DNA of 64,000 nt from Acidobacteriota bacterium. GTDB taxonomy: Bacteria > Acidobacteriota > Aminicenantia > Aminicenantales > Saccharicenantaceae. Where the stretch lies: positions 286,082-350,081 of the forward strand of contig JAWSUF010000002.1 in NCBI GenBank assembly GCA_033549365.1, in the 5' to 3' direction. The notes beneath the pieces are model-generated. The model made no database searches. It was given only the letters and a program-made list of their open reading frames with translations, and had not been told where the DNA came from. The stretch's first letter is position 1; every line of letters starts with the position of its first letter. The position numbers and the translations under genes are program-made. Below are positions 33,727 through 60,314 of the stretch, piece by piece.

Positions 33727-33747
33727 GTGCCGCCACCCTTGCGGAAA

Positions 33748-37902: not shown

Positions 37903-37915
37903 TGTCGTTTACCTC

Positions 37916-41784: not shown

Positions 41785-42245
41785 TTCTTGTACTTCTTCA
41801 GGATCGGGACGACCTTGCGCATGGAGGTATGGGCATGGTAGTCCTTGTCGACCACGACGACGGGACCGATGGCACAACACCCCAGGCAGGCCACGGTGTC
41901 CAGGGTGAATTGTCCGTCCTTGGTGGTCTGGCCCGGTTTCACCTTGAGCTGGCGCTCGAATTCGTCCAGGATCTTGGGACCTCCCCGGACATGGCAGGCC
42001 GTTCCCAGGCAAACCGTACAGGTGTGCTTCCCGCGAGGGGCCAGGCTGAAGGCCCGATAGAACGTCGCCACGCCGATGACATCGACGAGCGGAATGTTGA
42101 GCGCCTTGGCCACCTGTTTCAGACAGTCTCGGGGAAGATAGTTGTATTCCTCCTGGATGTCCTGCAGGATGGCGATGAGAGCTTTCTTGTTTCCGCCGTG
42201 TCTGTCGACGAGCGATTGAATTTTCGCCGTCTCTACACGCAACAT
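41781..42245 (-). CDS. NuoE-like [2Fe-2S] ferredoxin subunit
   Basis: CTVCLGTACHVRGG ... CLGCCAIGP. Confidence 0.8.
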   Translation of the reverse strand: MLRVETAKIQSLVDRHGGNKKALIAILQDIQEEYNYLPRDCLKQVAKALNIPLVDVIGVATFYRAFSLAPRGKHTCTVCLGTACHVRGGPKILDEFERQLKVKPGQTTKDGQFTLDTVACLGCCAIGPVVVVDKDYHAHTSMRKVVPILKKYKK

Positions 42246-42481
42246 TCACCTCCGGATTGAAAGATTAGTATCGTAAAAATCGGATGGTCCGTGTATCGGC
42301 CGGCGGCCGGCCGGGGCCCCGGGGTCTTGGAGGGAGCGGCGGATAATGATAATATGACTTGCTCCTCGCACCCATCGAGCCGGAGGTGCGAAAATAAATA
42401 CAGAAACGGTTTATACCAGAGAAAAAGAGCTGTTGTCAAGAAGAATGCAACAAAGAATGCCGTTTGTCCGCTAAAGGTGTC

Positions 42482-43144: not shown

Positions 43145-44024
43145 ACCCGTGGCCGTTATCGGAGCCGGTCCGGCCGGGCTTGCGGCCGCCATGCAACTGG
43201 CCCGCATGGGGATATCCGCAAGGCTTTTGGAACGGGCCGATCCGGGCGGGTTGCTTCTGAATGCTCATTGGGTCGAGAATTATCCCGGGTTTCCGGACGG
43301 CCTGTCCGGCCCCGATCTCGTCCGCTTAATGCGGCGCCATGCCGAAAGTTTCGGCGCCGTTCTGACGAAGGATGAGATTGTCTCGATCGTGGACGAAGAC
43401 AAGGTTTTCCGGATCAAAGGCCGCGCCCGGAATTACCTGGCCCGCAGGATCGTTTTGGCCTCGGGAACAAAAGCCCGGGGGCCGGCCGGATGCGAAATTC
43501 CTCCGGAGATGGAGGGCCGCATCCACACCGAAGTCGTCGCCCTGCGCGAGGCCTCGGGTCTTCGGATTGCCGTTGTCGGAGCGGGCGATGCGGCTTTCGA
43601 CTATGCCATCGGTCTTTCGGAAAGGAATGATGTGACTCTCTTGAAACGCAGCGCCGGCGTCCGGTGCCTGTCTCTCCTCCGGGAAAGGGCCGCAAAAAAC
43701 GCATGCATCGACATCCGAAATCATGTGAACGTCCTCCGCCTGGCCCCGGTGCCGTCCGGCGGCGCATCTGTTTGCGGAACGTGGAAGGGAAGCGATTTCC
43801 GTCTGGACGTCGATGCCGTGATCTTCGCCGTCGGCCGCGATCCGGAGACGGGCTGTCTTTCTCGCGAACTTCTTGAAAACATCCCGGTGCTTCGCGCATC
43901 CGGCCGGCTTTTTCCGGCGGGGGACATCCATAACGGCCTCTGCCGGCAGGCCTCGATCGCCGCGGGAGACGGAATCCGGGCGGCCATGGAAATCCACAGG
44001 CTCATGAAGGAGGCCGGAGAATGA
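43134..44024 (+). CDS. FAD/NAD(P)-binding oxidoreductase (thioredoxin-reductase-like fold)
   Basis: Two dinucleotide motifs, VAVIGAGPAGLAAA and IAVVGAGDAAFDYA. Confidence 0.7.
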   Translation: MKVEPVAVIGAGPAGLAAAMQLARMGISARLLERADPGGLLLNAHWVENYPGFPDGLSGPDLVRLMRRHAESFGAVLTKDEIVSIVDEDKVFRIKGRARNYLARRIVLASGTKARGPAGCEIPPEMEGRIHTEVVALREASGLRIAVVGAGDAAFDYAIGLSERNDVTLLKRSAGVRCLSLLRERAAKNACIDIRNHVNVLRLAPVPSGGASVCGTWKGSDFRLDVDAVIFAVGRDPETGCLSRELLENIPVLRASGRLFPAGDIHNGLCRQASIAAGDGIRAAMEIHRLMKEAGE

Positions 44025-44974
44025 AAATCCTGGCTGCCGCGGGAACCGAGGATGTGGCCATGGTCTACATCGCCGATATCGGAGACGGACGCAAAATCGA
44101 GCTGGTCGAATCCGTTCAGCCGCCGATTCCGCGCCTCAGGAAATGGGTGCTTCTGATTTCCACGCTGTGCGGCTGTCCGATCGGGTGTGCGATGTGCGAC
44201 GCCGGAGGCGGTTATCAGGGTCTTCTTTCCAAGGACGAGATTCTGGCCCAGATCGATTTTCTGGTCCGCCGCCGTTATCCCGACGGACATGTCCCGTGCG
44301 AGCAGTTCAAGATCCAATTCGCCCGCATGGGGGAACCGGCGCTCAATCCGGCCGTGCTCGATGTCTTGGACGAACTGCCGTCGCGTTTGGACGCTCCCGG
44401 TCTTATGCCGTCTCTATCGACGATCGCCCCGGCCGGTGCAGAAGACTTTTTCGAAGCCCTGATCGACATCAAGCGCCGCCGTTATGCCGGGGGGCGTTTC
44501 CAGTTCCAGTTTTCCATCCATTCCACGGACGCGGCTTGGCGGGGCAAACTGATTCCCGCGAAGACGTGGAGCTTCTCCGAGATGGCCGCCTACGGACGCC
44601 GCTTTTTCGCTCCGGGCGACCGGAAGATCGTTCTCAATTTCGCCCTGCCGCGGGAAGCTCCGGTCGATCCCGCAATCCTGAAGGACCACTTCGATCCGGA
44701 ACTTTTTCTAATCAAGATCACGCCCCTCAACCCGACCTATCGAGCTCGCGACAACCGTCTTGCGTCCGCAGTCGATCCGGATGCCCCCGAGGCCGATGCG
44801 GCGGCGGCCGACTTCCTGCGTGCGGCCGGCTACCGGGTGATTGTGAGCGTCGGGGAAGCCGAGGAAAACCAAATCGGCAGCAATTGCGGGCAATATCTAC
44901 GCCGCCACCTGGAAAGCCCGGCCCCCCTGGCCGACGGCTATTCTTACCCTCCGTTGCTTGGCTTCGATAAGTAA
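44021..44974 (+). CDS. Radical SAM protein with an RlmN/Cfr-like core
   Basis: CGCPIGCAMC (Cx3Cx2C) and the MGEPALNP motif, which resembles the RlmN GEP motif. It is shorter than RlmN. Confidence 0.5.
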   Translation: MKILAAAGTEDVAMVYIADIGDGRKIELVESVQPPIPRLRKWVLLISTLCGCPIGCAMCDAGGGYQGLLSKDEILAQIDFLVRRRYPDGHVPCEQFKIQFARMGEPALNPAVLDVLDELPSRLDAPGLMPSLSTIAPAGAEDFFEALIDIKRRRYAGGRFQFQFSIHSTDAAWRGKLIPAKTWSFSEMAAYGRRFFAPGDRKIVLNFALPREAPVDPAILKDHFDPELFLIKITPLNPTYRARDNRLASAVDPDAPEADAAAADFLRAAGYRVIVSVGEAEENQIGSNCGQYLRRHLESPAPLADGYSYPPLLGFDK

Positions 44975-47756: not shown

Positions 47757-49250
47757 TTGGCGCCTCGTGTTGAATCGTATTGCCGCCTAAGGTATGATTT
47801 CCGGGAATTGAAAACGATCTCATCCCTATGTCCGGAATGCCGAAAAGTGGTCGAGGCCCGGGTTTATCTGGACGGCGGGCGGATTCTGCTCGACAAGACG
47901 TGCCCCCGCCACGGCCGTTTTCAGGATGTCTATTGGTCCGATTCCCGGCAGTTCGAAAGGTTCGAGTCGTTTCGCCATGAGGGCGAAGGCATCGAGAACC
48001 CGCGGACTCGGGAAGACCGCGGCTGTCCTCTCGACTGCGGCCTCTGTCCCGGCCATAAATCCACCACCCTTTTGGCGATCGTGGATGTGACCAACAGATG
48101 TAACCTCCGCTGCCCCGTCTGCTTCGCGAATTCCGGGGTCCGCGGTTATGTCTACGAACCGACCCGGGATCAAATCCGGGCCATGCTGGAAAACGTCCGC
48201 AACAACCGGCCCCTGCCGACCCCGGCGCTGCAGTTTTCCGGAGGAGAGCCGACTCTCAGGCCCGACCTGGCCGACCTCGTGGCCATGGCCCGGGACCTCG
48301 GTTTCCTGAATATCGAGGTCAACACCAACGGGATCCGGCTGGCCGAAAGCCTCGATTTATGCCGAAGTCTGAAGGATGCCGGTCTGCATACGGTCTATCT
48401 TCAGTTCGACTCGCCGGATGCCGAGGTTCATCGCCGCATACGGGGCCGGGACCTTGTCGAAATCAAAAGACAGGCGATCGAGAACTGCCGCCGGGCGGAG
48501 ATCCCCAGCGTTGTACTGGTCGTCACCCTGATCAAAGGCGTGAATGACGGGCATCTCGGAGAGATCATCCGCTATGCGGCCCAAAACCGCGACATCATCC
48601 GCTGCGTCAACATTCAACCGGTGGCCTTCACCGGACGGAGGCCTGACGAAGCGGACCGGACCGGGCGCATCACGATCCCGGATGTTCTGGCCCTTGTCGA
48701 GGAGCAGACACAGGGCGACATCCGGGCCTCGGATTTTTATCCGGTGCCAAGCGTCGTTCCCGTCGCCAAGGCCGTCGGCGCTCTGAAGGGCGAGGTTTTT
48801 CCCGAGTTCACCGCCCATCCCCACTGCGGCGCCGGCACTTATTTTTTTGTCGAAGACGGCCGGATCACGGCGATCAACCGGCACGTGAATGTGAATAAAT
48901 TTCTCCGTTCCCTGGGGCGCATATCACGAACGGCCGCGAAAGGATATCGGAGCTTGGCGGGCCTGATGCTCCTTTTCTCTCTCCGCCATGTCAAGATCGG
49001 CATGTTGAGGAGATTTCTTCTGCCCATTTTAAGAATGGGAACGTTTGAGGCCCTGGCCGATTTCCACTTCAAGGTCGTGCTGGTTTCCTGCATGCATTTC
49101 ATGGATGCCTGGAATTTCGACGGGGAGCGTGTGCGGCGCTGCGTCATTCATTATGCCGTCCCGGACGGCCGGATCATCCCCTTCTGCGCCTACAACAATC
49201 TCGGCTACCGGGATGAGGTGGAGCATGCCTTCAAAACCGTCCGTGATTGA
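47757..49250 (+). CDS. Radical SAM enzyme with an N-terminal rubredoxin/Zn-ribbon-like Cys4 module and an extra CxxxCxxC cluster; candidate tetraether/membrane-spanning-lipid synthase (Tes/GDGT-MAS/Mss-like)
   Basis: CPEC...CPRHG, then CPLDCGLCPGH, then the canonical rSAM motif IVDVTNRCNLRCPVCFANSG and FSGGEPTL. About 480-497 aa. There is no in-frame ATG near the 5' end, so the start is probably TTG at 47757 or 47808. Confidence 0.55.
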   Translation: MAPRVESYCRLRYDFRELKTISSLCPECRKVVEARVYLDGGRILLDKTCPRHGRFQDVYWSDSRQFERFESFRHEGEGIENPRTREDRGCPLDCGLCPGHKSTTLLAIVDVTNRCNLRCPVCFANSGVRGYVYEPTRDQIRAMLENVRNNRPLPTPALQFSGGEPTLRPDLADLVAMARDLGFLNIEVNTNGIRLAESLDLCRSLKDAGLHTVYLQFDSPDAEVHRRIRGRDLVEIKRQAIENCRRAEIPSVVLVVTLIKGVNDGHLGEIIRYAAQNRDIIRCVNIQPVAFTGRRPDEADRTGRITIPDVLALVEEQTQGDIRASDFYPVPSVVPVAKAVGALKGEVFPEFTAHPHCGAGTYFFVEDGRITAINRHVNVNKFLRSLGRISRTAAKGYRSLAGLMLLFSLRHVKIGMLRRFLLPILRMGTFEALADFHFKVVLVSCMHFMDAWNFDGERVRRCVIHYAVPDGRIIPFCAYNNLGYRDEVEHAFKTVRD

Positions 49251-49986
49251 ACGCCTGAGGGACCGCCGGGAGGTCCTGCATTTCACGTTGATCGATCCCG
49301 ACAGCCAAACCCCCAAGCGGCTGGCCGAAGTCGTTCGGATGTGTTGCCGGTTCGGCACGGATGCCTTCATGGTCGGCGGGTCCGGTCCTTTCGGACGGCG
49401 CCGGCTGGAAACCGCCCTGAAGACGATCCGCAAACATACGGACCGGCCCGTCATTCTGTTTCCGAACTCCGCCGAATCCGTATCCCGGCACGCGGACGAA
49501 ATATTTTTCATGTCGCTTCTCAACTCCCGCGGATCTCGGTTTCTGATCGGCGAGCAAGTTCGGGCTGCCGCCGCTGTAAAAAGGGCCGGCCTCCGCCCGA
49601 TTTCCATGGCCTATATCGTTGTCGGCACGAGCCGGAAGCCGACGACCGTGGAAAAGAAGGTCAGACTGGAAGCCATCGGAAGTTGCGATGTTCGAAAAGC
49701 CAGGGACTATGCGCTCGCGGCCGAATATCTCGGAATGAGCTGTGTCTATCTTGAGGCGGGATCGGGCGCGGACAAGCCCGTGCCGCCGCGGATGATCCGG
49801 GCCGTGAGGGGGGAAATCTCGGTGCCTCTCATTGTTGGTGGAGGCATCCGCAGCCCGCGCCGGGCCCTCCAAACGGCGGAAGCCGGCGCCGACGCCGTCG
49901 TCACCGGCACGATCGTCGAGCGGGATCCGGCCCGTCTCGAAGCCATCATCCGGACCATCAAAGCGTTCCGGCCCGGCCGTCGATAA
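49225..49986 (+). CDS. Geranylgeranylglyceryl phosphate synthase family protein (GGGPS/PcrB)
   Basis: LHFTLIDPD, FMVGGS, YLEAGSGA and PLIVGGGIRS motifs of the (beta/alpha)8 GGGPS/PcrB family. Start is ATG 49225 or GTG 49243, overlapping the end of the upstream rSAM gene. Confidence 0.8.
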   Translation: MPSKPSVIERLRDRREVLHFTLIDPDSQTPKRLAEVVRMCCRFGTDAFMVGGSGPFGRRRLETALKTIRKHTDRPVILFPNSAESVSRHADEIFFMSLLNSRGSRFLIGEQVRAAAAVKRAGLRPISMAYIVVGTSRKPTTVEKKVRLEAIGSCDVRKARDYALAAEYLGMSCVYLEAGSGADKPVPPRMIRAVRGEISVPLIVGGGIRSPRRALQTAEAGADAVVTGTIVERDPARLEAIIRTIKAFRPGRR

Positions 49987-51072
49987 ATGGCGAAGGGAAC
50001 GACGATATCCGGCTTTTTATCTCTCATCCGGCTTCCCAACGGTTTGATCGCCGTTTTATCGACGGTGATGGCCGGCGTCGTGACCGCCCGGTCCTTCGAT
50101 ATCCGGCCCGCGGTTTTTCTCGGGGCCGGGATCGTCTGGCTCATCCTTTCGGGAGGAAACGCCCTCAATGATTTTTTTGATCGCCATATCGACAAGGTGA
50201 ACAGGCCGCGGAGGCCGATTCCTTCGGGTCGGATCACCGGCCGGCAGGCCGTCGTTTTCTCCTGGATTCTGCTTTCGCTGGGTCTGGGGCTGAGCCTGGC
50301 TCTTGGCCTCAAAGTCGCGGCCTTCGCCGCCGCGAACATCCTGATTCTTGTCATCTATGCCCGTTGGTCCAAGTCCCTGGGTCTGCTCGCCAATCTCGCG
50401 GTCGGCTGGCTGACGGCATCGGTCTTTCTCTTCGCTGCGATCATTCAGGGACATCCGGATGTCAATATCCTGGCCTTGAGCCTGAGCGCGTTTTTCATTA
50501 TGACATCGAGAGAAATCCTCAAGGACATCGAGGATATGGAAGGTGACAGGGAAGGAGGCGCGGCGGCGACCCTGCCGATCCGCGTCGGTCCGGGCCGGGC
50601 GCGAACGGCGGCCGTTCTGGCGGCTCTTCCCGCGGTTCCCCTGATTGTTCTTCCGTCCTTGAATCTGGGGATGAACGTTCTTTTCCCGGTTTTCGCCGTT
50701 CCCGCCGCCGCAACCGTCGTTTATTCCTTCTTTCCGAATCCGCGTGCGGCCCAGAGGTCGATCAAAATCGCCGTGATTCTGGTTCTCCTGGCCTATGTCT
50801 TCGGTGTCTTGTCGACGGACAAGAGAAGCCGAGGCTCAGGACATGAGGTATTTGACGGCGTAACGGGCGAGATCGGTGGCGTTTTTCGTCAGGATTTTCG
50901 TTATCCCGGCAAAAGATCCCCGGGAAAGATCGTCCAGTGTCTCTCCCGAGATCAGCCGGGCGAGGCGATTCAGGTCCGTGTCGGAGAGACGTTCGTGGAA
51001 TGTGTTGAGCTTGAGCATCCGCGCCGTTTTCCGGCCGTGTTGCGCTTTCCAGAGCGTTTCATAACGGCTTAA
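49987..51072 (+). CDS. UbiA-family prenyltransferase; digeranylgeranylglyceryl phosphate synthase (DGGGPS)-like
   Basis: NALNDFFDRHIDKVNRPRRPIPSGRI (the first Asp-rich UbiA motif), a second motif at REILKDIEDMEGD, and 8-9 TM helices. The last 75 aa or so (past about 50830) overlap the convergent GGR gene and look like stop-less read-through. Confidence 0.75.
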   Translation: MAKGTTISGFLSLIRLPNGLIAVLSTVMAGVVTARSFDIRPAVFLGAGIVWLILSGGNALNDFFDRHIDKVNRPRRPIPSGRITGRQAVVFSWILLSLGLGLSLALGLKVAAFAAANILILVIYARWSKSLGLLANLAVGWLTASVFLFAAIIQGHPDVNILALSLSAFFIMTSREILKDIEDMEGDREGGAAATLPIRVGPGRARTAAVLAALPAVPLIVLPSLNLGMNVLFPVFAVPAAATVVYSFFPNPRAAQRSIKIAVILVLLAYVFGVLSTDKRSRGSGHEVFDGVTGEIGGVFRQDFRYPGKRSPGKIVQCLSRDQPGEAIQVRVGETFVECVELEHPRRFPAVLRFPERFITA

Positions 51073-52245
51073 GCTTTCGCGCGTGACGGAGTTCTTTCGG
51101 ACGGCATCGGCGGCGATTTCGGCCGCCATCCGGCCCGACATCATGGCCAGTTTCATCCCGCCTCCGGTCGCCGGGTTGACGAGGTGACCGGCGTCTCCGA
51201 CAATCAGCAGGCCGTCTCCCGCAAGAGCCGGGATCGATCCGTCCGTCGGGACTCCGCCGCAGTTGATCTCGACGGCCGAGGCCCGCCCGAAAATATCCGG
51301 ACGATCGCGGATGAACAGGTCCAGGAAATCTTTTGCGCTTTTCCCCTCGGATTTGTCCGTCTTGATGCCGAGGCCGACGTTGGCCATGCTCGGTCCCTTG
51401 GGGAAGATCCAGGCGTATCCGCCCGGGGCAATGCCGTTTCCGAAATAGAGGTGGATCGCGGTTTCGTCGATATGGCGAAGGCCGGCCATCTCATATTGGA
51501 TTCCGCTGATGTAGGCTTCCTGCCTGTTTCTGCTGTCCAGTCCGGCCCATTTGGCGATCATGGAGTCCGGCCCGTCCGCCGCGATCACGATTCGGGCCGT
51601 GATGAATCCCTTTTTGCCGCGGCTTCGGAATTCCACGCCCGCAACGGTTCCATGATCCCGGATAACGCCGACAGCCTCCGTTTGAATCAGATAGCGCGCT
51701 CCCGCCAGAACGGCATTCCGGGCCAGGTGTTTTTCAAAAACCTTTCTTTCGAGGATATAGCCCCAATCCTCCTGCGATCGGGATTTCCACCGCACGGCCG
51801 TTCCGTCCGGCGCATGGAGAACGGCGCTTTGGATGCGGGCGGCCACCCAGCCGGGATCGACCTCCATGTCCAGATCTTTGAAGGTTTGGGAGCTGATGCC
51901 CTCGGCGCATCGTTTCGGCGCGCCGATTTCCCGCCGCTTTTCGACGACGATCGTCCGGATCCCCGACCGGGCCAGACGTTCGGCGCAGACACTGCCGGCG
52001 GGTCCGGCGCCCACGACGACGACATCCGTATCGATCGTCTCCGACGAAGTCGAACACGTCTTGTCCGAGGTTCGGGAAACGGCCCGGACGGGGCAGAAAG
52101 CAACGCATAACCCGCACGCTGTGCAGGCGGCCTCATCGAGATGGAGTCCGCCGTGCCCCAGGATCAGGGCTTCCGACGGACAGATTCCGACACATCCTCC
52201 GCAGATACAGCAGATCTCCCGATCGATACGGATGTTTCCGTTCAT
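50836..52245 (-). CDS. Geranylgeranyl reductase family FAD enzyme with an N-terminal 2x[4Fe-4S] ferredoxin domain
   Basis: True start MNGNIRIDREICCICGGCVGICP...CTACGLCVAFCP (GAGGG RBS upstream), then the FAD motif VVVVGAGPAGSVCAERLARSG. The GGR-type C-terminus reads GDAGHLVNPATGGGM. Confidence 0.8.
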   Translation of the reverse strand: MNGNIRIDREICCICGGCVGICPSEALILGHGGLHLDEAACTACGLCVAFCPVRAVSRTSDKTCSTSSETIDTDVVVVGAGPAGSVCAERLARSGIRTIVVEKRREIGAPKRCAEGISSQTFKDLDMEVDPGWVAARIQSAVLHAPDGTAVRWKSRSQEDWGYILERKVFEKHLARNAVLAGARYLIQTEAVGVIRDHGTVAGVEFRSRGKKGFITARIVIAADGPDSMIAKWAGLDSRNRQEAYISGIQYEMAGLRHIDETAIHLYFGNGIAPGGYAWIFPKGPSMANVGLGIKTDKSEGKSAKDFLDLFIRDRPDIFGRASAVEINCGGVPTDGSIPALAGDGLLIVGDAGHLVNPATGGGMKLAMMSGRMAAEIAADAVRKNSVTRESLSRYETLWKAQHGRKTARMLKLNTFHERLSDTDLNRLARLISGETLDDLSRGSFAGITKILTKNATDLARYAVKYLMS

Positions 52246-52310
52246 GTCGCCCTCGGTTTTTTTGCGGCGTTTCGGCGCTCCGCCGATTATAGACGGCCCG
52301 GCCTTGCCGT

Positions 52311-53390
52311 TCAACCCGGTTTGGGATCGGAGAGCCGGGAGATGTCCCGGCCGGGGTTTCCGGAAACAATCAGGGTGGTGCCCACTGTCATGACCATGAC
52401 GACAAGATAGAATTGAAATAAAACCGCATAGGGAAGGAAGCGGAATTGCCGGAAATGTCTCATGGGGTTGAGCATGATCATGATGTCGGCGAGCAGACGA
52501 ATCATCACGAATAATGGAAGGGATGTTGTGAATACCGGGTAAATGGAGACGCCCAGATAAAGCGCCATAAGAAACGGGACCAGAATTCTCCATCCTCGCA
52601 TCGGATAAAAGAAGCCGGAGGTCCAGCGCTTTTTTTGCCGGATATTGTCCTTCAGGCTTCTCATGGGCCGGGTGAAAACGGCTGTGTCGGCATGGAATAT
52701 CAGGCGAGCTCCCCCACATCGATGCTTGTGACAGGCCCGGACAAGCCGATAATCCAACAGGGCACCCGAGCTCATTTTTTGATATCCGCCGGCCTGCACA
52801 TAAGCCTTTTTACTGAATGCCATGTTTCCCCCGAACAAGCTGCATGTCCGAAAGGTTCGCGCCAGGGATTTCCCGATGGAAAACATGTAGAGGAATTCCA
52901 GGGCTTGCATATCGGCCGCGATCCGGGTGTTTTCGCGGATCAAATAGGCCCCGCCCACAATGGCATCTCCGCCGCGGAGCCGGGAGGACAGTTCGGATAT
53001 CCACCTTGACCCGGCGACACAGTCGGCGTCGATCTGCATGATGATCTCTCCCCGGGCTTTTTCGATACCGAACGCCAGAGCCTTTTTTCTTCCCGGAGAT
53101 CCTCCTCTCAGCCGGAAAGAGCGAAAATTCTCCAGCGAATCCGAATAGACTCGGATGATCTCCGGAGTCTTGTCTTTGGAATGATCGTCCACGATAACGA
53201 CCTCGTATTGATCCCGGGGCCAGTCCTGGTTCTTGAGCGATTCGAGGCACTCCCGGATGTTGTTCTCCTCGTTCCGCGCGGTCAGGACAACAGAGACAAA
53301 CCGGCGCGGTTCGTCGGCGGTCGGAGTGTCATCCGTCTTGGCCGTGAGGAAAAACGCAGCGAGGGACACGGCCAGATAAAGCATGTACAC
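52311..53390 (-). CDS. Family-2 glycosyltransferase, membrane-anchored
   Basis: N-terminal TM, then VSVVLTARNEE...VVIVDDHSKD (GT-A DxD region), then C-terminal TM helices. Confidence 0.7.
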   Translation of the reverse strand: MYMLYLAVSLAAFFLTAKTDDTPTADEPRRFVSVVLTARNEENNIRECLESLKNQDWPRDQYEVVIVDDHSKDKTPEIIRVYSDSLENFRSFRLRGGSPGRKKALAFGIEKARGEIIMQIDADCVAGSRWISELSSRLRGGDAIVGGAYLIRENTRIAADMQALEFLYMFSIGKSLARTFRTCSLFGGNMAFSKKAYVQAGGYQKMSSGALLDYRLVRACHKHRCGGARLIFHADTAVFTRPMRSLKDNIRQKKRWTSGFFYPMRGWRILVPFLMALYLGVSIYPVFTTSLPLFVMIRLLADIMIMLNPMRHFRQFRFLPYAVLFQFYLVVMVMTVGTTLIVSGNPGRDISRLSDPKPG

Positions 53391-53446
53391 AATAAGAATG
53401 ATTGTGAACAGGTTGACACCCTTAACGCATTCTTGTAGGTTCTCTC

Positions 53447-54613
53447 ATGGCCAAACAGTATCCTGAGAACGGTCGAAATTGTCAAATGTCCTTGAAGATT
53501 CTTGTTGTCGGGGCGGGATTGAGCGGCGCCGCAGTCGCCAGGCTGCTTCGGGATCGGGGACATCGCATCCTTGTCGTCGAAAAGGAGAGCCATGTCGGCG
53601 GTCTGTGCATCACGAGAATCAGCCCCAACGGACTGCAATACGAACCCTTCGGAGCGAGGACGTTTCACTCCCGGAAACCGGATGTCATCGCTTTTGTCCG
53701 AAGATTCGCCGAATTCAACGGCTATGTTCACCGCAAGGGGATCATAATCCATGGGAAACTGTTCCCGTATCCGATCAGCCGGGAATCCCTGTCGGCCCTC
53801 GATTCCCGGGAGAGGATCTGCCGTGAACTTGAAAATCTGCCGGACGAGGTTGACGCGACGAATTTCGAAACGGCCGCGCTTTCGCTTTTCGGAGAGACGC
53901 TTTATCGATTGTTCATTCGGAATTATACAACCCGGATGTGGGGGGTGGATCCGGTCCATTTGTCCGCCGACATGGCCTTAAGGAGACTTGAGCTCCGGGA
54001 TGGCCCCGCCGGGGACTTGTTTCGCGGCGAATGGCAGGGCTTGCCGTCCCGCGGCTATTCGGCGTTTCTGGAAAGCATGCTCGAAAGCATTCCCGTGAAG
54101 CTCCATACGCCGTTTGACACCGGCGATTCGTATGATGTTGTGGTGTCATCGGCTCCGATCGACGAGATGTTGGCTTTCCGTTTCGGACGGCTGGCCTATC
54201 GGAGTCTTCGGTTCGATTATCAGGCCGACGCGCCCTGGGAACATGACGCTTTTGGGACCATCAATCTTCCCCAGGATGGGACATACATCAGGAAATGCAA
54301 CTTCAAGATCCTCCACCGCCGGCAATCCCGCCGCAATTGGATTCAATACCAGGAACCCGTGGCTGCGGAAAACGGCCGAATTCCCATGTATCCGGTCGCT
54401 ACGACGGAGAACGAGCAGGCTTACATCAGGTGTTTAAGGGCGATCTGCGCGACCCGGATTTGCCCGGTGGGAAGAATGGGGTTTTCGAAATATTTGAACA
54501 TGGACCAAGCCGTTGAAGTCGCTTTCAGAATGTTGCCGGTCATTGAGCATTATCCCCGGCTCAGCCCGGCGGTCCGGTTCGAAAAAATTGCGGCCATCCG
54601 GGCGAAATATTGA
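53447..54613 (+). CDS. glf: UDP-galactopyranose mutase
   Basis: KILVVGAGLSGAAVA FAD motif. It has the overall UGM length and conserved Trp/Tyr-rich substrate-loop region. An alternative start MSLKIL lies at 53486. Confidence 0.75.
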   Translation: MAKQYPENGRNCQMSLKILVVGAGLSGAAVARLLRDRGHRILVVEKESHVGGLCITRISPNGLQYEPFGARTFHSRKPDVIAFVRRFAEFNGYVHRKGIIIHGKLFPYPISRESLSALDSRERICRELENLPDEVDATNFETAALSLFGETLYRLFIRNYTTRMWGVDPVHLSADMALRRLELRDGPAGDLFRGEWQGLPSRGYSAFLESMLESIPVKLHTPFDTGDSYDVVVSSAPIDEMLAFRFGRLAYRSLRFDYQADAPWEHDAFGTINLPQDGTYIRKCNFKILHRRQSRRNWIQYQEPVAAENGRIPMYPVATTENEQAYIRCLRAICATRICPVGRMGFSKYLNMDQAVEVAFRMLPVIEHYPRLSPAVRFEKIAAIRAKY

Positions 54614-54646: not shown

Positions 54647-56224
54647 TCACCGGCAGGCTTCGGGATCGCAGGGGAATTTCGTCCGAAGCATGAAATCGGC
54701 GAAGCGGTTGGAAATGCCGGCCGTGCGCGCGCCCGTCAGCCGCCTCCACATTCCGATGCCTTTGGCTCCCACTCCGACGATTTTCAGGATGGGCGCCGGC
54801 ACCTCGCTTCCCCAGATCGAGACGTTCAATTCCCAACAGCGCTCGATGACGGCCAGTTGCGTGTCCGTCAGGCCGTCCAGGCTGATCCGCTTCGATCGGC
54901 CCAGGGGCGTCCGGTCCAGGGGGATGAAAAGGATCGGGGTGTAAAAGAGAACGGCGTTCTGCCGGTGGAGCCGCTCGATGAGCCCGGCCGTCCGAAGGGC
55001 GTCGTTTTCGTCCTCACCCGGCCACCCCACGATGATCGTGGCCAGGGGATAGATCCGGTTGGCGTTGAATGCGGCGACACCCTCACAGACGATGTCTGGC
55101 CAGCCGTCCGCGTCCAGGGGAAGGGCTTTTCCCGGCATGTGCCGGCTCATGATCCGCGGGCTTCCGGATTCGATGCCGATTTCAACCGTGGCGTAAGGTT
55201 TGCCTCTCAGGGTCCGCGACGATTTTTCGACGAAGATGGGGGCGAGTTCGGGCAGCAACTTGGGATCGACGAGGACGGGTGCGATCGAGGCGTGAGACAG
55301 GTGGATATGCCGGAGGCCCGGCCGGGCCGCCACGGCCTCGAAAAGGCCGGCGAGAGCTTTCCGGTCCGGCTCGAAGTTGCGTTGCGAACGGTAGAGAAAC
55401 ATGTCGTCGGTGACGATGAAGGCCGCATCGCCGCCGCCCCGGATGTTCGTATCGATCTCGCTCAGGACGGTTTCGAGGGCCACGGAGTGCTTTTTCTGCA
55501 GGTTCGGCGAACAGAAGGCACAGCCTCTTCCGCAACCCCGGGTGATTTCCACGTCGCCGAATATCGCCGGGGCGCGAATCGCGGGAGCTTCGCCGCTGCG
55601 TCCGGACGGCTTGAGGCGGATGACCCGGGGCGCCGCTCCTCTGCGGATGGATTCGAATACGGCCGGAATGTCCGACTCCGACCGTCCCGACACCAGATGA
55701 TCGATGCCCAGTTCCGCCTGTTTTCCGGAATGATCGATTTGCCAGACGGCTTCCCCCCCGACGACGATTTTGAAGGTTTTCCCGCGTTTGAGCCGTCGGG
55801 CTTTCCGGAGCAGTCGTTTGAATTCATAGGCATTGACGGACTCTCCCCCGAATCCCACCAGGGAGTTGTAGGTCGTGCTGACGTAGGCGAGCCCCAGGGG
55901 GTCCATGGTCGAAATGCCGAGAATTTCGGTCCCGTCGCCGACGCAAGATTCCAGATGGTCGGGATGGCAGACGACAACGCCGCCGTCGTCTTCGGCCTCG
56001 GACAAGGCCGCCTCGATTTTTCTCAGGCCGTAAGGCGCGAAGCGGGCGCGGCCGTCGGCATGGGCGACCGGAGCAAAAAACTTTTCCAGGTATAATCCCG
56101 CAGGAATCCGGGGGAACGTGCATTTGAAGGCTTCGAAGGCATCGGCGGGCAATCCGATTTCGGGGCCGAATTGGCTCATTTCGGCGCGCGAGGCCGTCAA
56201 GACGATCGAATAACCGCGGCCCAT
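54647..56224 (-). CDS. B12-binding-domain radical SAM protein (class B rSAM)
   Basis: N-terminal Rossmann-like cobalamin domain (ILGISTMDPLGLAYV) followed by the rSAM motif TRGCGRGCAFCS. The start is uncertain (56224 or 56281). Confidence 0.6.
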   Translation of the reverse strand: MGRGYSIVLTASRAEMSQFGPEIGLPADAFEAFKCTFPRIPAGLYLEKFFAPVAHADGRARFAPYGLRKIEAALSEAEDDGGVVVCHPDHLESCVGDGTEILGISTMDPLGLAYVSTTYNSLVGFGGESVNAYEFKRLLRKARRLKRGKTFKIVVGGEAVWQIDHSGKQAELGIDHLVSGRSESDIPAVFESIRRGAAPRVIRLKPSGRSGEAPAIRAPAIFGDVEITRGCGRGCAFCSPNLQKKHSVALETVLSEIDTNIRGGGDAAFIVTDDMFLYRSQRNFEPDRKALAGLFEAVAARPGLRHIHLSHASIAPVLVDPKLLPELAPIFVEKSSRTLRGKPYATVEIGIESGSPRIMSRHMPGKALPLDADGWPDIVCEGVAAFNANRIYPLATIIVGWPGEDENDALRTAGLIERLHRQNAVLFYTPILFIPLDRTPLGRSKRISLDGLTDTQLAVIERCWELNVSIWGSEVPAPILKIVGVGAKGIGMWRRLTGARTAGISNRFADFMLRTKFPCDPEACR

Positions 56225-56292
56225 GACGACGACTATAGTTTGAGAGAACCCGGGTGTCAATCTCGCCGCGGCCTGCCCCATAAGGAGTTTCT

Positions 56293-57111
56293 ATGGTATA
56301 TTCTTTCCTGAGAGAGATGCGACCGGACATGAAACACAACGGATCTTTGAGGCGCACCATCGGAACCGCGGTCTGCCTCTGCATCCTCTGTTCCGCGGCC
56401 GCCGCCTTCGAGCCGGGGAAACGAGCCGAACACAATCCCAGGGAGATTCTGGAGCGCGTCGACAAGATGATGCACGGCGATTCCTCCTCCGGCATCCTGG
56501 TCATGACGGTTCAGGCCGAGCATTGGACTCGGACGCTCGAGGTGCAATTTTCGACGAAAGGCGATGACCGGTTCCTGGTGCGGATTCTCTCTCCCAAAAA
56601 GGAGAAGGGCACGGCAACCCTGAGATCCGGGTCGGACATCTGGAACTACCTTCCCAAAACCAACCGCGTCATCAAGGTGCCGTCCGTATCGCTGGCCTCC
56701 TCCTGGATGGGAAGCCACTTCACGTACGACGACATGTTGAAGGACAGGCGGCTGGCCGATGATTTCCTGTCGGCCGTCACGAATGAAGAAGCTACGGAAT
56801 CCGGACTTCTGGTGGAGATCACCGGCACTCCGAAACCGGATGCGCCCGTCGTTTGGGGCTCGATCCGGGTCGTGGTGAACACGGATCTGGACCTGCCGCG
56901 CTGGATTCGATACTACGACGAAAACGGCGGGTTGGTGCGGACGCTGGAATTTTCCGACATCGGACCTCTGGGCGGCCGGCGGCTTCCCCGGCGCCAACGT
57001 ATGACTCCCGCGGAGAAACCCGGGGAGTTCACGGACGTCGTCTATCGCGATCTTGTCTTCAATCCCGACCTGGACGACGCATTCTTCTCGCTGCGCGCGC
57101 TGCAAAGATAA
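56293..57111 (+). CDS. LolA-like outer-membrane lipoprotein carrier/sorting protein
   Basis: Signal peptide, then about 230 aa of beta-rich sequence. It sits directly upstream of two FtsX-type permeases and an ABC ATPase (a LolCDE-like arrangement). Confidence 0.5.
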   Translation: MVYSFLREMRPDMKHNGSLRRTIGTAVCLCILCSAAAAFEPGKRAEHNPREILERVDKMMHGDSSSGILVMTVQAEHWTRTLEVQFSTKGDDRFLVRILSPKKEKGTATLRSGSDIWNYLPKTNRVIKVPSVSLASSWMGSHFTYDDMLKDRRLADDFLSAVTNEEATESGLLVEITGTPKPDAPVVWGSIRVVVNTDLDLPRWIRYYDENGGLVRTLEFSDIGPLGGRRLPRRQRMTPAEKPGEFTDVVYRDLVFNPDLDDAFFSLRALQR

Positions 57112-57123
57112 CGGGAATCATCG

Positions 57124-58344
57124 GTGTCTATTCTTGCCTATGCCTGGCGCAACCTGGGGCGAAACAGGAAGCGCACCATGATCACGCTCACGTCTCTGGC
57201 CTTCGCCACGGCGGTTCTCATCGTCAGTTTCGCTCTTCTGGACGGGCTCATCGGCGATATCGAAAACAACATCACTTCGATATCCGCAGGCGAGGTTCAG
57301 ATCCATGCTCCGGGCTATTTCGATGAGCGATCTCTCTACCGGACGCTCGATGATCCGGCGGGAATCCTCCGGATCGTCGAGCAATCGGCCGCCAAAGCGG
57401 CCCCGCGAAGCTACGGCGACGGCCTTCTGGCCCGCGACGTCCGGTCCTCCGGCTGCCGGTTTTGGGGCGTCGATCCGGCCGCTGAGAGAAAGGCATTCTC
57501 ATTGCCGGAAAGGATCCTGGCCGGCGCGTTCCTGTCCGATCAGCCGGAAAGAGAGATCGTTCTGGGAGAAAACCTGGCCCACTCCCTGAGGGCCGGCGTC
57601 GGCGATGAGCTGGATGCGGTCGTGCAGGCGGCGGACGGTTCGCTAGGAAACGAGGTCTTCATCCTTCGCGGGATTCTTCAAACCTCCGGCGCTGAAATCG
57701 ATCTGTCGGCCGCGATCATTCATGAGCGGGACTTCGCCGATCTTTTCGTCTCCGGCGGTGCCGTTCACGAAATTGCGGTCAATTCCGGCGGGCGCATTTC
57801 AGCGGATCGATTGAGAAATCGGATTCGCGCCGCCGCCCCCGGTGTCGATGTGAAGACCTGGCGGGAAATCCTCCCCCTGTTTGCGGGAACGGTGCAGAAC
57901 GCCCGGAAAGCCGTCTGGGTCTTCAGCATCTGCTTTTTTCTTGTTGCGGGTCTGGGCATCACGAACACGATGCTCATGGCGACTTACGAACGCACCCGGG
58001 AGTTCGGGATCATGAAAGCTCTGGGGACGGCGCCGCGGCGGATCATCGGCATGATTCTTGCTGAATCCGCGCTTCTCTGCCTGTGCGCCACGATCGCCGG
58101 TGCGGCGTTGGGGGCGGCCGCCTCACTCTATCTTGCGGATACAGGACTGGATCTCGGGGGATTTCCCATAAAAATGAAAATGACGACCTTCATCCACAGC
58201 GCGGTCTGGCGGGCCGCTCTCGGCTGGAAAAACATCATGTTGCCGGTTCTGTGCATCTGGGCGGTCTGCATTCCGGCCGCACTTTACCCGGCTTTGACCG
58301 CGGCGCGCCTGGATCCCGTTCGGACTCTGCATGGCCGGTATTGA
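57124..58344 (+). CDS. FtsX-like ABC permease (MacB/LolC-type) with a large periplasmic domain
   Basis: GTG start. N-terminal TM, a periplasmic domain of about 200 aa, three C-terminal TM helices and the FtsX motif region ATYERTREFGIMKALG. Confidence 0.75.
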   Translation: MSILAYAWRNLGRNRKRTMITLTSLAFATAVLIVSFALLDGLIGDIENNITSISAGEVQIHAPGYFDERSLYRTLDDPAGILRIVEQSAAKAAPRSYGDGLLARDVRSSGCRFWGVDPAAERKAFSLPERILAGAFLSDQPEREIVLGENLAHSLRAGVGDELDAVVQAADGSLGNEVFILRGILQTSGAEIDLSAAIIHERDFADLFVSGGAVHEIAVNSGGRISADRLRNRIRAAAPGVDVKTWREILPLFAGTVQNARKAVWVFSICFFLVAGLGITNTMLMATYERTREFGIMKALGTAPRRIIGMILAESALLCLCATIAGAALGAAASLYLADTGLDLGGFPIKMKMTTFIHSAVWRAALGWKNIMLPVLCIWAVCIPAALYPALTAARLDPVRTLHGRY

Positions 58345-58365
58345 TCCGGGGCGAAGGAGTATCCG

Positions 58366-59604
58366 ATGATCGGCGGAATGGCCTGGAGAAGTCTCCGGCG
58401 GAACACGAAGAGAACGGCGATCACCGTCGCCGCCGTCGCGCTGGGTCTTCAATTCGCCATCGTCTATGCGACCTTCGAGCAGGGGCTGAACTATCGGCTG
58501 GAAAACGAATTGGTCGGCTTCCTGGCCGGCCATATCACCCTGGAACATCCCGACTACCGGATGGACCCGGATGTCGCCTTTTATCTCGAGGATGCCGAGC
58601 GACTCGGGCGTTCCCTTGAAACCGCGCCGGGAGTCGATGCCGTCAAGCCTCTCGTCATTGCGAGAGGTCTTGTGAAATCCTCCCAGGGCAGCGGCTATGT
58701 CGAGATTCGAGGGGTCGATCCCTCCGTCGAAAGCCGCACGTCGCCTCTGGTTCCCCTTATCGTTTCCGGCCGATATCTCCGGGACCGGAAGGCTCCCGAT
58801 ATCGTCCTGGGCGAAAGCCTGGCCCGGCGGCTGCGGGTTGCCGAAGGAAACCGGGTCGTTCTGGCGACGTCCGGCGCCGACGGTGTTTTGATCGAGGCGC
58901 TCTGCCGGGTCTCGGGCGTTTTTCAAACCGGAATCAGCGAGTTCGATTCGTTTCTGGTCCAGGTGCCTCTTGAGTTTCTGCGGGATGTCCTGCAGCTCCC
59001 CCCGGAAAGTGCGACTCAGATCGGAGTCCTGGCTTCAAGTCCCGCAAGTCAGAAACGTCTGATGAAACGGATTTCCTCCTGGGTCGACGAAACATCCGTT
59101 GCGGTTTACCCCTGGCAGAGCCTGCTTCCCCAATTGGATGCCCTGACCCGTCTGATCAAGGCGTCGGTCTGGATCCTGGAGGGTGTTCTTCTGATCCTGG
59201 TCCTTTTTATGGTCTGGAATACGCTTCTCATGTCCATTCTCGAACGCCGGAAAGAATTCGCCGTGCAACGGGCCCTGGGAACACCGACCGGGTTCGTGAA
59301 AAGGCAGCTTTTTCTTGAAACAGCATGGATCGCCGCCGCCGGCACTTTTTTGGGTTTACTTTGGGGCGGCGGGTTGTCCCTGATCCTTCAGTTCCGGGGC
59401 GTTGATTTCGAGAGATTCCTCGGAGAGCAGAAACCGGTGATGGGGATGGGATTGCCGACCGTGCTTTACACGCGGGTGACGGCGCCGGCGCTGATCATTC
59501 CGGCCGCGGCGATCCTGGCCGGGGTTCTGGGCCTCGGGCTGCTGGTCATGCGGCGGGCGACGCAGGCGCCCCCGGCCGAGTCCCTGCGGGAGGGAAAACC
59601 ATGA
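58366..59604 (+). CDS. FtsX-like ABC permease (second, LolE-like)
   Basis: Same architecture as the first permease, including SILERRKEFAVQRALG. Confidence 0.75.
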   Translation: MIGGMAWRSLRRNTKRTAITVAAVALGLQFAIVYATFEQGLNYRLENELVGFLAGHITLEHPDYRMDPDVAFYLEDAERLGRSLETAPGVDAVKPLVIARGLVKSSQGSGYVEIRGVDPSVESRTSPLVPLIVSGRYLRDRKAPDIVLGESLARRLRVAEGNRVVLATSGADGVLIEALCRVSGVFQTGISEFDSFLVQVPLEFLRDVLQLPPESATQIGVLASSPASQKRLMKRISSWVDETSVAVYPWQSLLPQLDALTRLIKASVWILEGVLLILVLFMVWNTLLMSILERRKEFAVQRALGTPTGFVKRQLFLETAWIAAAGTFLGLLWGGGLSLILQFRGVDFERFLGEQKPVMGMGLPTVLYTRVTAPALIIPAAAILAGVLGLGLLVMRRATQAPPAESLREGKP

Positions 59605-60314
59605 CGGACATCATACGCGTTCGGGGGTTGACCAAGCATTATGTCAAAGACAGCCTTGTCGTTCCCGCGCTTCAAGGCGTCGACCTGGCTCTGAAGGAGG
59701 GCGATTTCGCGGCCGTGGCCGGCCCGTCCGGGTCGGGAAAAACAACCTTGCTCAATCTCATCGGGGGGTTGGATCGGCCCACCGCAGGCTCTGTCGAGGT
59801 GGAAGGCCGATTGTTGAACGAACTTTCGGAGGCCGAACGGACGCGTTTGCGGTGTGACCGCATCGGTTTTGTTTTTCAGACGCACAATCTTTTTCCCGTT
59901 TTGACGGCGCTCGAAAACGCCGAATATGTGCTCATGCTCCAAGGGCGGCCCAAGGATGAGCGCCGGGATATCGTCCGGGCGCTTCTGAAGGATGTGGGAC
60001 TCGAAGGCCTTGAGAATCGCTTTCCCAGGGAGCTTTCAGGCGGACAACAGCAGAGAGTGGCCATCGCCCGGGCCGTCGCGGCCCGGCCGGCCATTGTTCT
60101 GGCCGATGAGCCGACGGCGAATGTGGACGCCCGGACCGCGGCCGGCATTCTGGACCTGATGAAACGATTGAATGAGGAAAAACGGGTGACCATGCTGTTC
60201 TCCTCGCATGATCCCGAGGTGCTGAAAAGATCGGAAAAAATCTTTTATATCAGGGACGGCCGAATCAGCGGTCTTTCGCCGCAGGAGATGATAACGGGTT
60301 CTGATGAGCGATAA
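59601..60314 (+). CDS. ABC transporter ATP-binding protein (LolD/MacB-ATPase-like)
   Basis: Walker A GPSGSGKTT, signature LSGGQQQRV, Walker B VLADEPT. Confidence 0.85.
   Translation: MTDIIRVRGLTKHYVKDSLVVPALQGVDLALKEGDFAAVAGPSGSGKTTLLNLIGGLDRPTAGSVEVEGRLLNELSEAERTRLRCDRIGFVFQTHNLFPVLTALENAEYVLMLQGRPKDERRDIVRALLKDVGLEGLENRFPRELSGGQQQRVAIARAVAARPAIVLADEPTANVDARTAAGILDLMKRLNEEKRVTMLFSSHDPEVLKRSEKIFYIRDGRISGLSPQEMITGSDER

Follow-up and report, generated by a model that had tools for sequence, protein, structure and literature searches.

A Grs-like radical SAM gene within a predicted isoprenoid tetraether lipid cluster of an outer-membrane-bearing bacterium

The window, which is the whole 64,000-nucleotide stretch of Acidobacteriota DNA that was analyzed, contains a radical SAM gene that converges on a gene for a Glf-like flavoprotein (stop at 54613), and genes for a family 2 glycosyltransferase, a ferredoxin-fused geranylgeranyl reductase (GGR), a UbiA-family prenyltransferase, GGGP synthase (GGGPS), and the tetraether lipid synthase Tes all lie within 7 kb (Table 1). 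The convergence with lipid genes, which had been pointed out in an earlier reading of this DNA from its letters alone (the sequence-only reading), was thus confirmed. Tes is located 5.4 kb from the radical SAM gene, and the GGGPS shares 52% identity with its PcrB counterpart in a related locus (L002). For the GGR gene, the start was placed by comparison with a 469-aa gene call in another related locus (L001). Among the window ORFs scanned, there was none for G1P dehydrogenase or CDP-archaeol synthase, and an Rfam search found no RNA genes. The window also holds markers of a bacterial-type host, namely an outer-membrane beta-barrel protein, a LolA-like protein, and MacB.

Table 1. Coordinates of the genes and features of the cluster, in window positions.
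Feature	Position	Strand	Evidence or remark
Tetraether lipid synthase Tes, presumed substrate supplier	47757..49250	+	NCBIfam NF045702, 619 bits (cutoff 450); Pfam Zn_ribbon_HMPTM and Radical_SAM
GGGP synthase, PcrB family	49243..49986	+	TIGR01769, 216 bits (cutoff 162); NF003198, 269 bits (cutoff 247); exact start uncertain
UbiA-family prenyltransferase, DGGGP-synthase-like	49987..51072	+	PF01040, 132 bits; best NCBIfam model NF009521, 210 bits, below cutoff 296
Ferredoxin-fused geranylgeranyl reductase	50836..52245	-	GGR_cat, FAD_binding_3, Fer4; TIGR02032, 235 bits (cutoff 159)
Family 2 glycosyltransferase, candidate for head-group glycosylation	52311..53390	-	PF00535, 100.6 bits; L001 counterpart 87% identical
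UDP-galactopyranose mutase-like flavoprotein, convergent with the radical SAM gene	53447..54613	+	PF03275 (GLF), 103 bits; TIGR00031, 189 bits, below cutoff 304
Coding sequence, Grs-like radical SAM enzyme	54647..56224	-	525 aa from the probable start; ORF itself extends to 56281
C-terminal helical region, aa 454-514	54683..54865	-	AlphaFold model helices 454-474, 477-496, and 502-514
Radical SAM partial TIM-barrel core, aa 220 to ~435	54920..55567	-	Barrel seen in AlphaFold model
CX3CX2C motif, predicted [4Fe-4S] ligand	55511..55534	-	Cys231, Cys235, and Cys238 (525-aa numbering)
N-terminal Rossmann/flavodoxin-like domain, aa 1 to ~200	55625..56224	-	Predicted divergent homologue of B12-binding domain
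Putative sigma-70-like promoter, TTGACA-17-TATAGT	56232..56260	-	Leaderless or nearly leaderless transcript implied

The ORF at 54647..56281 that the sequence-only reading had noted for the radical SAM gene (minus strand, 544 aa, ATG) was confirmed at exactly these positions, but its start at 56281 is probably wrong, and translation probably begins at the ATG at 56224, resulting in a protein of 525 aa. This start is likelier because the homologue P0001, which is 96% identical, is 525 aa long and has as its first residue the Met equivalent to ATG 56224, and because a promoter-like site (56260..56232) is present within the 57-nt 5' extension, 7 nt before ATG 56224. The site has 11 of 12 matches, and 0.3 sites were expected in shuffles. 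The gene is clearly beyond chance, since its family comprises more than 1,000 homologues and the protein keeps all of the 45 residues that are conserved in at least 95% of 87 sampled superfamily sequences. An exact look-up of the protein found no record.

With respect to the class of enzyme, the sequence-only reading had described a B12-binding radical SAM protein, of which the radical SAM part was borne out by the match to Pfam Radical_SAM (PF04055; 35.6 bits, cutoff 29.5) and by the sequence CGRGCAFC, which conforms to the CX3CX2C motif that defines the superfamily. The motif RGCGRxCxFC was invariant among the homologues, and its three cysteines were the sole ones conserved in 100% of them, which argues against an auxiliary cluster. 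The AlphaFold model (mean pLDDT of 89) consists of a Rossmann-like N-terminal domain, a TIM barrel, and C-terminal helices. The C-terminal region includes W464 and N467, which are conserved superfamily-wide, and, by analogy with the Grs models in PMC13459092, its helices are possibly a substrate- or membrane-binding element. The B12-binding part of the description was not reproduced by Pfam, in that PF02310 gave no match to the protein even at E ≤ 10, and is indicated by a remote profile and fold relationship alone. An hhalign comparison with classical PF02310-bearing radical SAM proteins gave a probability of 98.2% with an E-value of 5e-14 and an alignment that spans the N-terminal domain, and a paralogue was found to match PF02310 at a sub-threshold score. 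In a fold search, the best structural matches were MgmA, RimO/MiaB, AprD4, and TsrM, which are B12 radical SAM enzymes and cofactor-less relatives. AprD4 and the methylthiotransferases have the same fold and do not use cobalamin. Based on the profile and fold comparisons, the N-terminal domain is predicted to be a divergent B12-binding-type domain in a class-B-like fold.

An alternative is a non-lipid housekeeping radical SAM enzyme that acts on RNA, protein, or a cofactor in the manner of MiaB/RimO or MgmA, with its position in the cluster having no functional meaning. It is favored by the Thermoplasmatota homologues, beside which an M18 aminopeptidase gene and a small ORF, and no lipid genes, are conserved. 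However, the three N-terminal cysteines and the TRAM domain of the methylthiotransferases were not found in the target; Cys35 and Cys94 are 86–91% conserved in the close family and not superfamily-wide, and a third cysteine is absent. Methylthiotransferase identity was rejected on the lack of auxiliary-cluster cysteines and of a TRAM match and on a TIGR00089 score of 41 bits (cutoff 251), and all NCBIfam scores were far under the cutoff (56 bits or less against 251). MgmA (methyl-coenzyme M reductase glutamine C-methyltransferase; PDB 9ccb) differs in several respects. Its NCBIfam model gave 26 bits (cutoff 360), its substrate is a glutamine in a methanogen protein, which the present, non-methanogenic host lacks, and the target is distinguished from it by an insertion in the N-domain and by additional helices at the C terminus. 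The sequence-only reading had proposed that clear orthology to a non-lipid B12 radical SAM family, such as BchE or a Fom3-like methylase, with conserved synteny elsewhere would refute a lipid role, and no such match was found among the models compared, which also covered hopanoid families: the models for BchE (TIGR02026), HpnR (TIGR04367), and HpnJ had no match in the target at E ≤ 0.01, while they do match a classical B12 radical SAM protein (83–144 bits), and the score with the PhpK P-methylase model was 16 bits (cutoff 600). Two lipid-related identities were also rejected, namely the GMGT synthase Gms, owing to the lack of a SPASM match and of conserved C-terminal cysteines in the target, and Tes itself, which belongs to a different family and is already present in the cluster.

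The target and its relatives form a monophyletic clade; the relatives are 54–96% identical and, for the most part, come from contigs that carry bacterial markers. In five of the seven distinct contigs of the clade (window/L001, L002/L003, L087/L088, L090, and L091), the radical SAM gene was found beside Tes, GGGPS (PcrB), a DGGGPS-like UbiA gene, and the ferredoxin-fused GGR, and some of these loci also have a GGPPS-like gene. Because the linkage is kept in five of seven independent contigs, the adjacency to lipid genes is no accident of the window. Moreover, the linkage with Tes and GGR is kept at protein identities of 54–63%, where the flanks otherwise differ between contigs, and this stands against the housekeeping alternative, which we regard as improbable. 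The clusters L087 and L090 additionally hold a paralogue with 33–36% identity and a separate SPASM radical SAM gene, in which they resemble the published grsA-hbs-hgm-grsB operons. The neighborhood of the paralogue P0144 was uninformative.

The wider family is archaeal and includes tandem paralogues, with members in Thermoproteia (including Ignisphaera), Bathyarchaeia, Hadarchaeota, Nitrososphaeria, Thermoplasmatota, and Asgard archaea. Proteins of about 520 aa from Ignisphaera aggregans, Desulfurococcaceae, and Bathyarchaeota are 37–42% identical to the target at 89% coverage (E-values of 1e-99 to 1e-121), and a genome-contig scan with the target family returned archaeal MAGs only, at 40–49% identity. 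In the tree, the mostly bacterial target clade has uncultured Thermoplasmatota as its nearest relatives, and the two clades are distinct from that of Thermoproteia. In the Thermoplasmatota sister clade, core lipid genes were not adjacent to the archaeal homologues, and classical class B radical SAM proteins are encoded as separate genes beside the target homologues in some loci (PF02310, 58 bits); their relationship to the target is at the profile level, with no BLAST similarity. A homologue labeled '[Eubacterium] cellulosolvens' was rejected as a bacterial non-lipid case, since its contig carries LSM, aIF-2B-like, DUF3198, and EF-2-type genes and is thus archaeal.

The characterized GDGT ring synthases are GrsA (Saci_1585; WP_011278400.1, AAY80898.1) and GrsB (Saci_0240; AAY79657.1) of S. 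acidocaldarius. A review describes GrsA and GrsB as having no auxiliary Fe-S cluster and models them with a Rossmann-like N-terminal domain, a radical SAM barrel, and a C-terminal helix (PMC13459092), and this architecture is present in the target as judged from its model and cysteine conservation. Further points in common are a length of about 500–550 aa with a Rossmann-like N-terminal domain, predicted in the target to be of B12 type, and a CX3CX2C TIM barrel, the existence of distant paralogue pairs with about 31–36% identity, and the company of Tes, Gms, and B12 methylase genes; co-occurrence with the tetraether synthase was observed in the five linked contigs of the clade, the window among them. 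The ring synthases likewise occur in Thermoproteia, Bathyarchaeia, Hadarchaeota, Nitrososphaeria, Thermoplasmatota, and some bacteria, the grs distribution in Blum et al (bioRxiv 10.1101/2022.08.15.504015) being the same as that of the target family. The spread, tandem paralogy, and neighbors described for Grs in that report and in Garcia et al (bioRxiv 10.1101/2023.10.20.563219) match those of the target family as well. On the other hand, the target belongs to a separate, mostly bacterial clade, and its likeness to the ring synthases is one by published description and not by the sequences of GrsA and GrsB. Also against this reading stand the Thermoplasmatota homologues with no core lipid genes beside them, the lack of a Pfam match for a B12 domain, the different chemistries seen among relatives of lipid radical SAM enzymes, and the lack of G1P dehydrogenase and CDP-archaeol synthase among the window ORFs scanned. 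Published thresholds for Grs assignment call for a coverage of 70% or more and an identity of 20% or more at E ≤ 1e-40 (Blum et al), or for an identity of 30% or more at E < 1e-30 (PMC11868695); the match to the Thermoproteia members of the family (37–42% identity, 89% coverage, E ≤ 1e-99) speaks indirectly for Grs membership. The saci_1585 flank, taken from primers in the supplement of bioRxiv 10.1101/2025.10.20.683597, had no match in metagenome scans, and the motif RGCGRGC was absent from the full texts and supplements searched. On balance, the gene appears to encode a Grs-family radical SAM enzyme that is part of an archaeal-style isoprenoid tetraether cluster of an anaerobic, outer-membrane-bearing bacterium.

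As for the substrate, GrsA homologues have been reported in Planctomycetota, Cloacimonadota, and Acidobacteriae, and a Grs homologue is also on record for Aerophobetes (Blum et al 2022; Garcia et al, 2023/2024; PMC11868695). These resemble the present case in being Grs-like radical SAM genes that are in bacterial genomes and co-occur or cluster with tes and gms. In those reports, bacterial Tes, Grs, and Gms homologues are interpreted as modifiers of fatty-acid-based brGDGTs, and a linkage to GGGPS, DGGGPS, and GGR is not described in the passages covered. It may accordingly be asked whether the substrate is a fatty-acid-derived branched tetraether of the brGDGT type, as the published interpretation and the bacterial-looking host, with its beta-barrel protein, LolA-like protein, and MacB, would suggest, rather than an isoprenoid GDGT. 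However, the target cluster encodes an isoprenoid diether pathway, and its neighbors, which are GGGPS above the equivalog cutoff, the DGGGPS-like UbiA protein, GGR, and, in relatives, the GGPP-synthase-like gene, point to isoprenoid ethers, so that a branched substrate seems very unlikely.

The suggestion of the sequence-only reading that the enzyme modifies isoprenoid chains by methylation or ring formation is supported by the class-B-like architecture, the conserved linkage, and the Grs-like spread, paralogy, and neighbors, but sequence alone cannot separate ring formation from methylation or desaturation. An enzyme of the same family with the same lipid substrate could perform another chemistry, such as methylation, desaturation, cross-linking, methylation of the glycerol backbone, or ring formation at an uncharacterized position. 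In support of this, the Gmm family spans a GMGT methylase, GDGT methylases, and the desaturase Ted, a Gmm homologue; the closest solved structure is that of the B12-dependent methylase MgmA; and the target and Thermoplasmatota clades stand apart from that of Thermoproteia, with published trees holding 'unclassified Grs' clades. The Gmm/Hgm-type enzymes (GMGT methylase, GDGT methylases, and Ted) are comparable in acting on unactivated tetraether-chain carbons and in being often encoded near grs and gms, but they are classical class B proteins, described as MoeK5-similar in the literature, and the target is set apart from Gmm by description. BLAST detects no similarity between the target and classical B12 methylase-type radical SAM proteins, on which ground a classical Gmm/MoeK5-type methylase was rejected, and the family signature fits a non-methylase group that includes the Ignisphaera proteins. 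Another chemistry is rather unlikely. We infer that the protein's family is that of the Grs enzymes, that it acts on the tetraether made by the cluster, that it closes rings, and that it may use cobalamin.

In the proposed pathway to ring closure, GGGPS and the UbiA-type prenyltransferase would attach two geranylgeranyl chains to glycerol phosphate, the ferredoxin-fused GGR would then saturate the chains, and Tes would couple two diethers tail to tail to give the tetraether. The Grs-like enzyme, with a single [4Fe-4S]/SAM site, would generate 5'-deoxyadenosyl radicals for hydrogen abstraction from unactivated biphytanyl carbons, and its divergent B12-type N-terminal domain may hold a cobalamin that stabilizes the first radical. 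The outcome would be an intrachain C-C bond, which forms a cyclopentane ring.

The TEX86 palaeotemperature proxy relies on ring-bearing isoprenoid GDGTs, which are regarded as products of archaea only. According to Zeng et al (PMC8941075), GDGT synthesis has yet to be demonstrated in any bacterium. We tentatively raise the possibility that a diderm bacterium makes archaeal-type isoprenoid GDGTs and cyclizes them with a Grs-like enzyme, and that the target clade is a laterally transferred and bacterially maintained branch, possibly with a ring position or chemistry of its own. If this is true, there would be a bacterial source of ring-bearing isoprenoid GDGTs. It is the bacterial isoprenoid tetraether context that is of interest here, as the enzyme itself joins a known kind, and, if it only acts as expected of a Grs homologue, it would be a typical representative of the family, found in an atypical host. 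The target nevertheless provides a bacterial-clade representative of a poorly characterized, Thermoplasmatota-rich branch of the family, and the set of genes for GGGPS, the DGGGPS-like prenyltransferase, GGR, Tes, and the ring-synthase-like protein, encoded within about 8 kb, bears on whether bacteria may have crossed the 'lipid divide' as far as cyclized tetraethers.

The radical SAM gene was found as a 544-aa ORF at exactly the place and extent of the sequence-only reading, and its product carries the CX3CX2C motif as CGRGCAFC. Its start required correction: translation probably begins at ATG 56224, which makes the protein 525 aa long. P0001, the closest homologue at 96% identity, has this same length and the equivalent first Met, and TTGACA-17-TATAGT (11/12 matches), the sole sigma-70-like site in the region, lies within the supposed 5' extension, 7 nt ahead of this ATG. 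The position of the site suggests a leaderless or nearly leaderless message.

The gene is convergent with a UDP-galactopyranose-mutase-like (Glf-like) gene, its stop codon being 33 nt from that of the latter, beyond which are genes for GT2, ferredoxin-fused geranylgeranyl reductase (Fer4-GGR), UbiA, GGGP synthase (GGGPS, PcrB) and tetraether synthase (Tes). They form a compact archaeal-type tetraether lipid cluster with even G+C throughout. Neither G1P dehydrogenase nor CDP-archaeol synthase was seen among the window ORFs scanned. The UbiA ORF (361 aa, compared with 272–278 aa for the homologues of related clusters) overlaps the 3' end of the GGR gene, with which it is convergent, by 237 nt, as it also does in the homologue-carrying contig L001, and its extra ~85 residues had no family match. 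On the other side, a LolA-like gene, two MacB/FtsX permease genes and an ABC ATPase gene are divergent from the radical SAM gene; the LolA-like gene adjoins the radical SAM homologue in L001 also, and a MacB/ABC/RND-adaptor set adjoins the homologue in contig L091. The LolA-like, MacB and ABC genes may represent an envelope lipid-trafficking system tied to the lipid cluster.

Coordinates and matches of features in the window and on related contigs (L-numbers)
Feature	Position	Match or remark
Radical SAM ORF	54647..56281, minus strand	Pfam Radical_SAM, 35.6 bits (cutoff 29.5)
Promoter-like site	56260..56232	
Lipid cluster	47757-54613	
GT2 glycosyltransferase	upstream of Glf-like gene	
Fer4-GGR	upstream of Glf-like gene	TIGR02032, 235 bits (cutoff 159)
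UbiA prenyltransferase	upstream of Glf-like gene	best match DGGGP synthase, below cutoff
GGGP synthase	upstream of Glf-like gene	TIGR01769, 216 bits (cutoff 162)
Tes	upstream of Glf-like gene	NF045702, 619 bits (cutoff 450)
UbiA-GGR overlap	50836-51072	
LolA-like (TP_0789-like) gene, two MacB/FtsX permease genes, ABC ATPase gene	56293-60314	
Anaerobic energy genes	12286-21886; 36325-42249	
317-aa ORF	44021-44974	radical SAM and RlmN/Cfr-like, very weak (18 bits Pfam, 35 bits NCBIfam)
Low-G+C region	32000-36000	G+C 0.52-0.55 (~0.60 elsewhere)
Second family member and SPASM radical SAM	L087 3239-6794; L090 8024-11939	
DUF2070 membrane protein gene	L002 8052-10004; L003 1652-3331	
Partial DUF2070-like ORF	L090 1-519	
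Thermoplasmatota neighbours (examples)	L004 9591-9908; L009 5113-6477	

The relatives at 54–96% identity form a single clade, and in five of its seven distinct contigs (window/L001, L002/L003, L087/L088, L090 and L091) the gene has Fer4-GGR, Tes, PcrB and UbiA for neighbours, in many cases together with a GGPP-synthase-like gene; the remaining two, L085 and L089, run out within ~250 bp and 1.6 kb of the gene on its downstream side. The flanking genes vary from contig to contig. This linkage supports the proposal, likewise drawn from adjacency to ether-lipid genes, that the enzyme would modify isoprenoid chains. Bacterial markers (porins, outer-membrane barrels, MacB, RND adaptor, bacterial SelB and sulfatases) were found on five contigs, and L087 and L090 have markers of neither kind. 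In both of these there is another member of the family (501 and 537 aa; 33–36% identity to the target), accompanied by a SPASM radical SAM resembling the published Gms/Hbs type, with a GGPP-synthase-like gene elsewhere in both clusters and a second UbiA gene in L090; none of these four is in the 64-kb window. In L002 and L003 the first 4 nt of the homologue are shared with a DUF2070 membrane protein gene, and in L090 a partial DUF2070-like ORF precedes the homologue at a distance of 35 nt; the window yielded no DUF2070 homologue.

Of the designation as a B12-binding radical SAM, the radical SAM part stood and the B12 part was weakened. PF02310 gave no match to the target even at E≤10, and the top NCBIfam match, TIGR04013 'B12_SAM_MJ_1487', reached 56 bits where the cutoff is 251. 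When the target was compared, profile to profile, with five classical PF02310-bearing radical SAMs, the probability was 98.2% and E was 5e-14, with FAPYGLRKIEAAL of the target aligned with their PPLGLLYLAGMLEK segment, and one paralogue had a sub-threshold PF02310 match. The AlphaFold model (64 homologues as input, mean pLDDT 89) consisted of a Rossmann/flavodoxin-like N-domain, the radical SAM barrel and three C-terminal helices. Profile and model lend remote support to the N-terminal 200 residues being a divergent B12-type domain, and cobalamin use is only a possibility, as AprD4 and the methylthiotransferases have the same fold yet do not use cobalamin. A MiaB-type auxiliary cluster was ruled out because the only cysteines conserved family-wide are the three of the radical SAM motif.

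The target family agrees with the published accounts of GDGT ring synthases (Grs) (PMC13459092, Blum et al., Garcia et al., PMC11868695) in size, architecture, lack of an auxiliary cluster, the occurrence of two paralogue types that are only distantly related (GrsA and GrsB have 31% identity, E 4e-62), location near gms/hbs and a B12 methylase gene, and a spread that is rich in Thermoproteia, includes Bathyarchaeia, Hadarchaeia and multi-copy Nitrososphaeria, and is sporadic in bacteria. Other chemistry on the same lipid is a rival explanation; the other known lipid B12 radical SAMs (Gmm, the GDGT methylases and Ted) are classical MoeK5-like proteins according to the literature, and BLAST detected no similarity of the target to the classical B12 radical SAMs found at homologue loci. 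Because of the matching features and this lack of similarity, the target is probably a Grs-family member, likened to GrsA (Saci_1585) and GrsB (Saci_0240) through published descriptions.

In a full HMMER scan of 1.84 billion representatives, E≤1e-30 was reached by just 156 clusters and E≤1e-3 by 663, indicating that the superfamily is compact. The target retains all 45 residues conserved at ≥95% in an 87-sequence sample of the superfamily. A distance tree had two halves, one with the target and the Thermoplasmatota and Thermoproteia proteins and the other with the paralogue types, whose relatives include Asgard archaea, Bathyarchaeia, Aenigmatarchaeota and Methanoregula. The nearest relatives (40–49% identity; one genome per species) are nearly all from uncultured Thermoplasmatota, with a few from Hadarchaeota, Halobacteriota and one Nitrososphaeria MAG, and ~520-aa proteins of Ignisphaera aggregans, Desulfurococcaceae and Bathyarchaeota have 37–42% identity (E 1e-99 to 1e-121, 89% coverage). 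Contig L084 (CDLUMC010000157.1), which carries a homologue named by NCBI as '[Eubacterium] cellulosolvens', looks archaeal from its LSM, IF-2B-family, DUF3198 and EF-2-type genes, the label probably being a binning error. A non-lipid role is a further rival, on which the archaeal, mostly Thermoplasmatota, loci bear: core lipid genes are absent around these homologues, and what recurs next to them is an M18 aminopeptidase gene and a small ORF without a family match; set beside this is the lipid-gene linkage in the target clade. Among L004–L083, the small ORF (~105–114 aa) directly precedes the homologue in 34 loci, and the aminopeptidase gene directly follows it in 37. A classical B12 radical SAM (PF02310, 58 bits) neighbours the homologue at L009, L049, L078 and L080, and tandem paralogues occur at L021, L031 and L063.

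Outside the lipid cluster, the window looks bacterial and anaerobic from its genes, which include a TDE1717-type outer-membrane barrel, the LolA-like protein, MacB/FtsX permeases, a Cache/HAMP histidine kinase, acetate kinase, hydrogenases, heterodisulfide-reductase-like proteins and a 2-oxoacid:ferredoxin oxidoreductase. The energy-metabolism set (NiFe hydrogenase small and large subunits, acetate kinase, a HEAT-repeat protein, HdrB-like (CCG) and HdrA-like proteins and a 1213-aa NuoF-GltD-type fusion) is ordinary for an anaerobe. The 317-aa ORF follows a pyridine-nucleotide-disulphide oxidoreductase gene. The low-G+C region, where long ORFs with high third-position G+C are scarce, may be inserted or non-coding. 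Rfam detected no RNA gene in any part of the window.

With the corrected start codon and the weaker B12 claim, both the observation and the interpretation of the sequence-only reading hold. In the proposed mechanism, GGGPS, the UbiA enzyme, GGR and Tes would produce a saturated isoprenoid tetraether, and the target enzyme, making 5'-deoxyadenosyl radicals at its single cluster, would take hydrogen off a methyl branch and off a methylene four carbons away, resulting in closure of a cyclopentane ring. The B12-type domain might park the first radical on cobalt, by analogy with the proposal for Grs in PMC13459092. More speculatively, GT2 and the Glf-like mutase could equip the lipid with a head group that contains galactofuranose, and the LolA-like/MacB system next door could carry the lipid across the envelope.

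As a probable Grs-family member the enzyme is of a known type, bacterial Grs homologues having been reported before. In the searchable literature, the Tes homologues of bacteria are taken to be brGDGT enzymes, and action of the target on brGDGT-type lipids is the corresponding rival; linkage to a GGGPS/UbiA/GGR cluster is not described there, and no description of a ring-synthase-like gene fixed in a bacterial cluster with the isoprenoid diether pathway was found in it. Because the target gene is fixed in a cluster encoding this pathway, the making of cyclised archaeal-type tetraethers by bacteria becomes directly testable.
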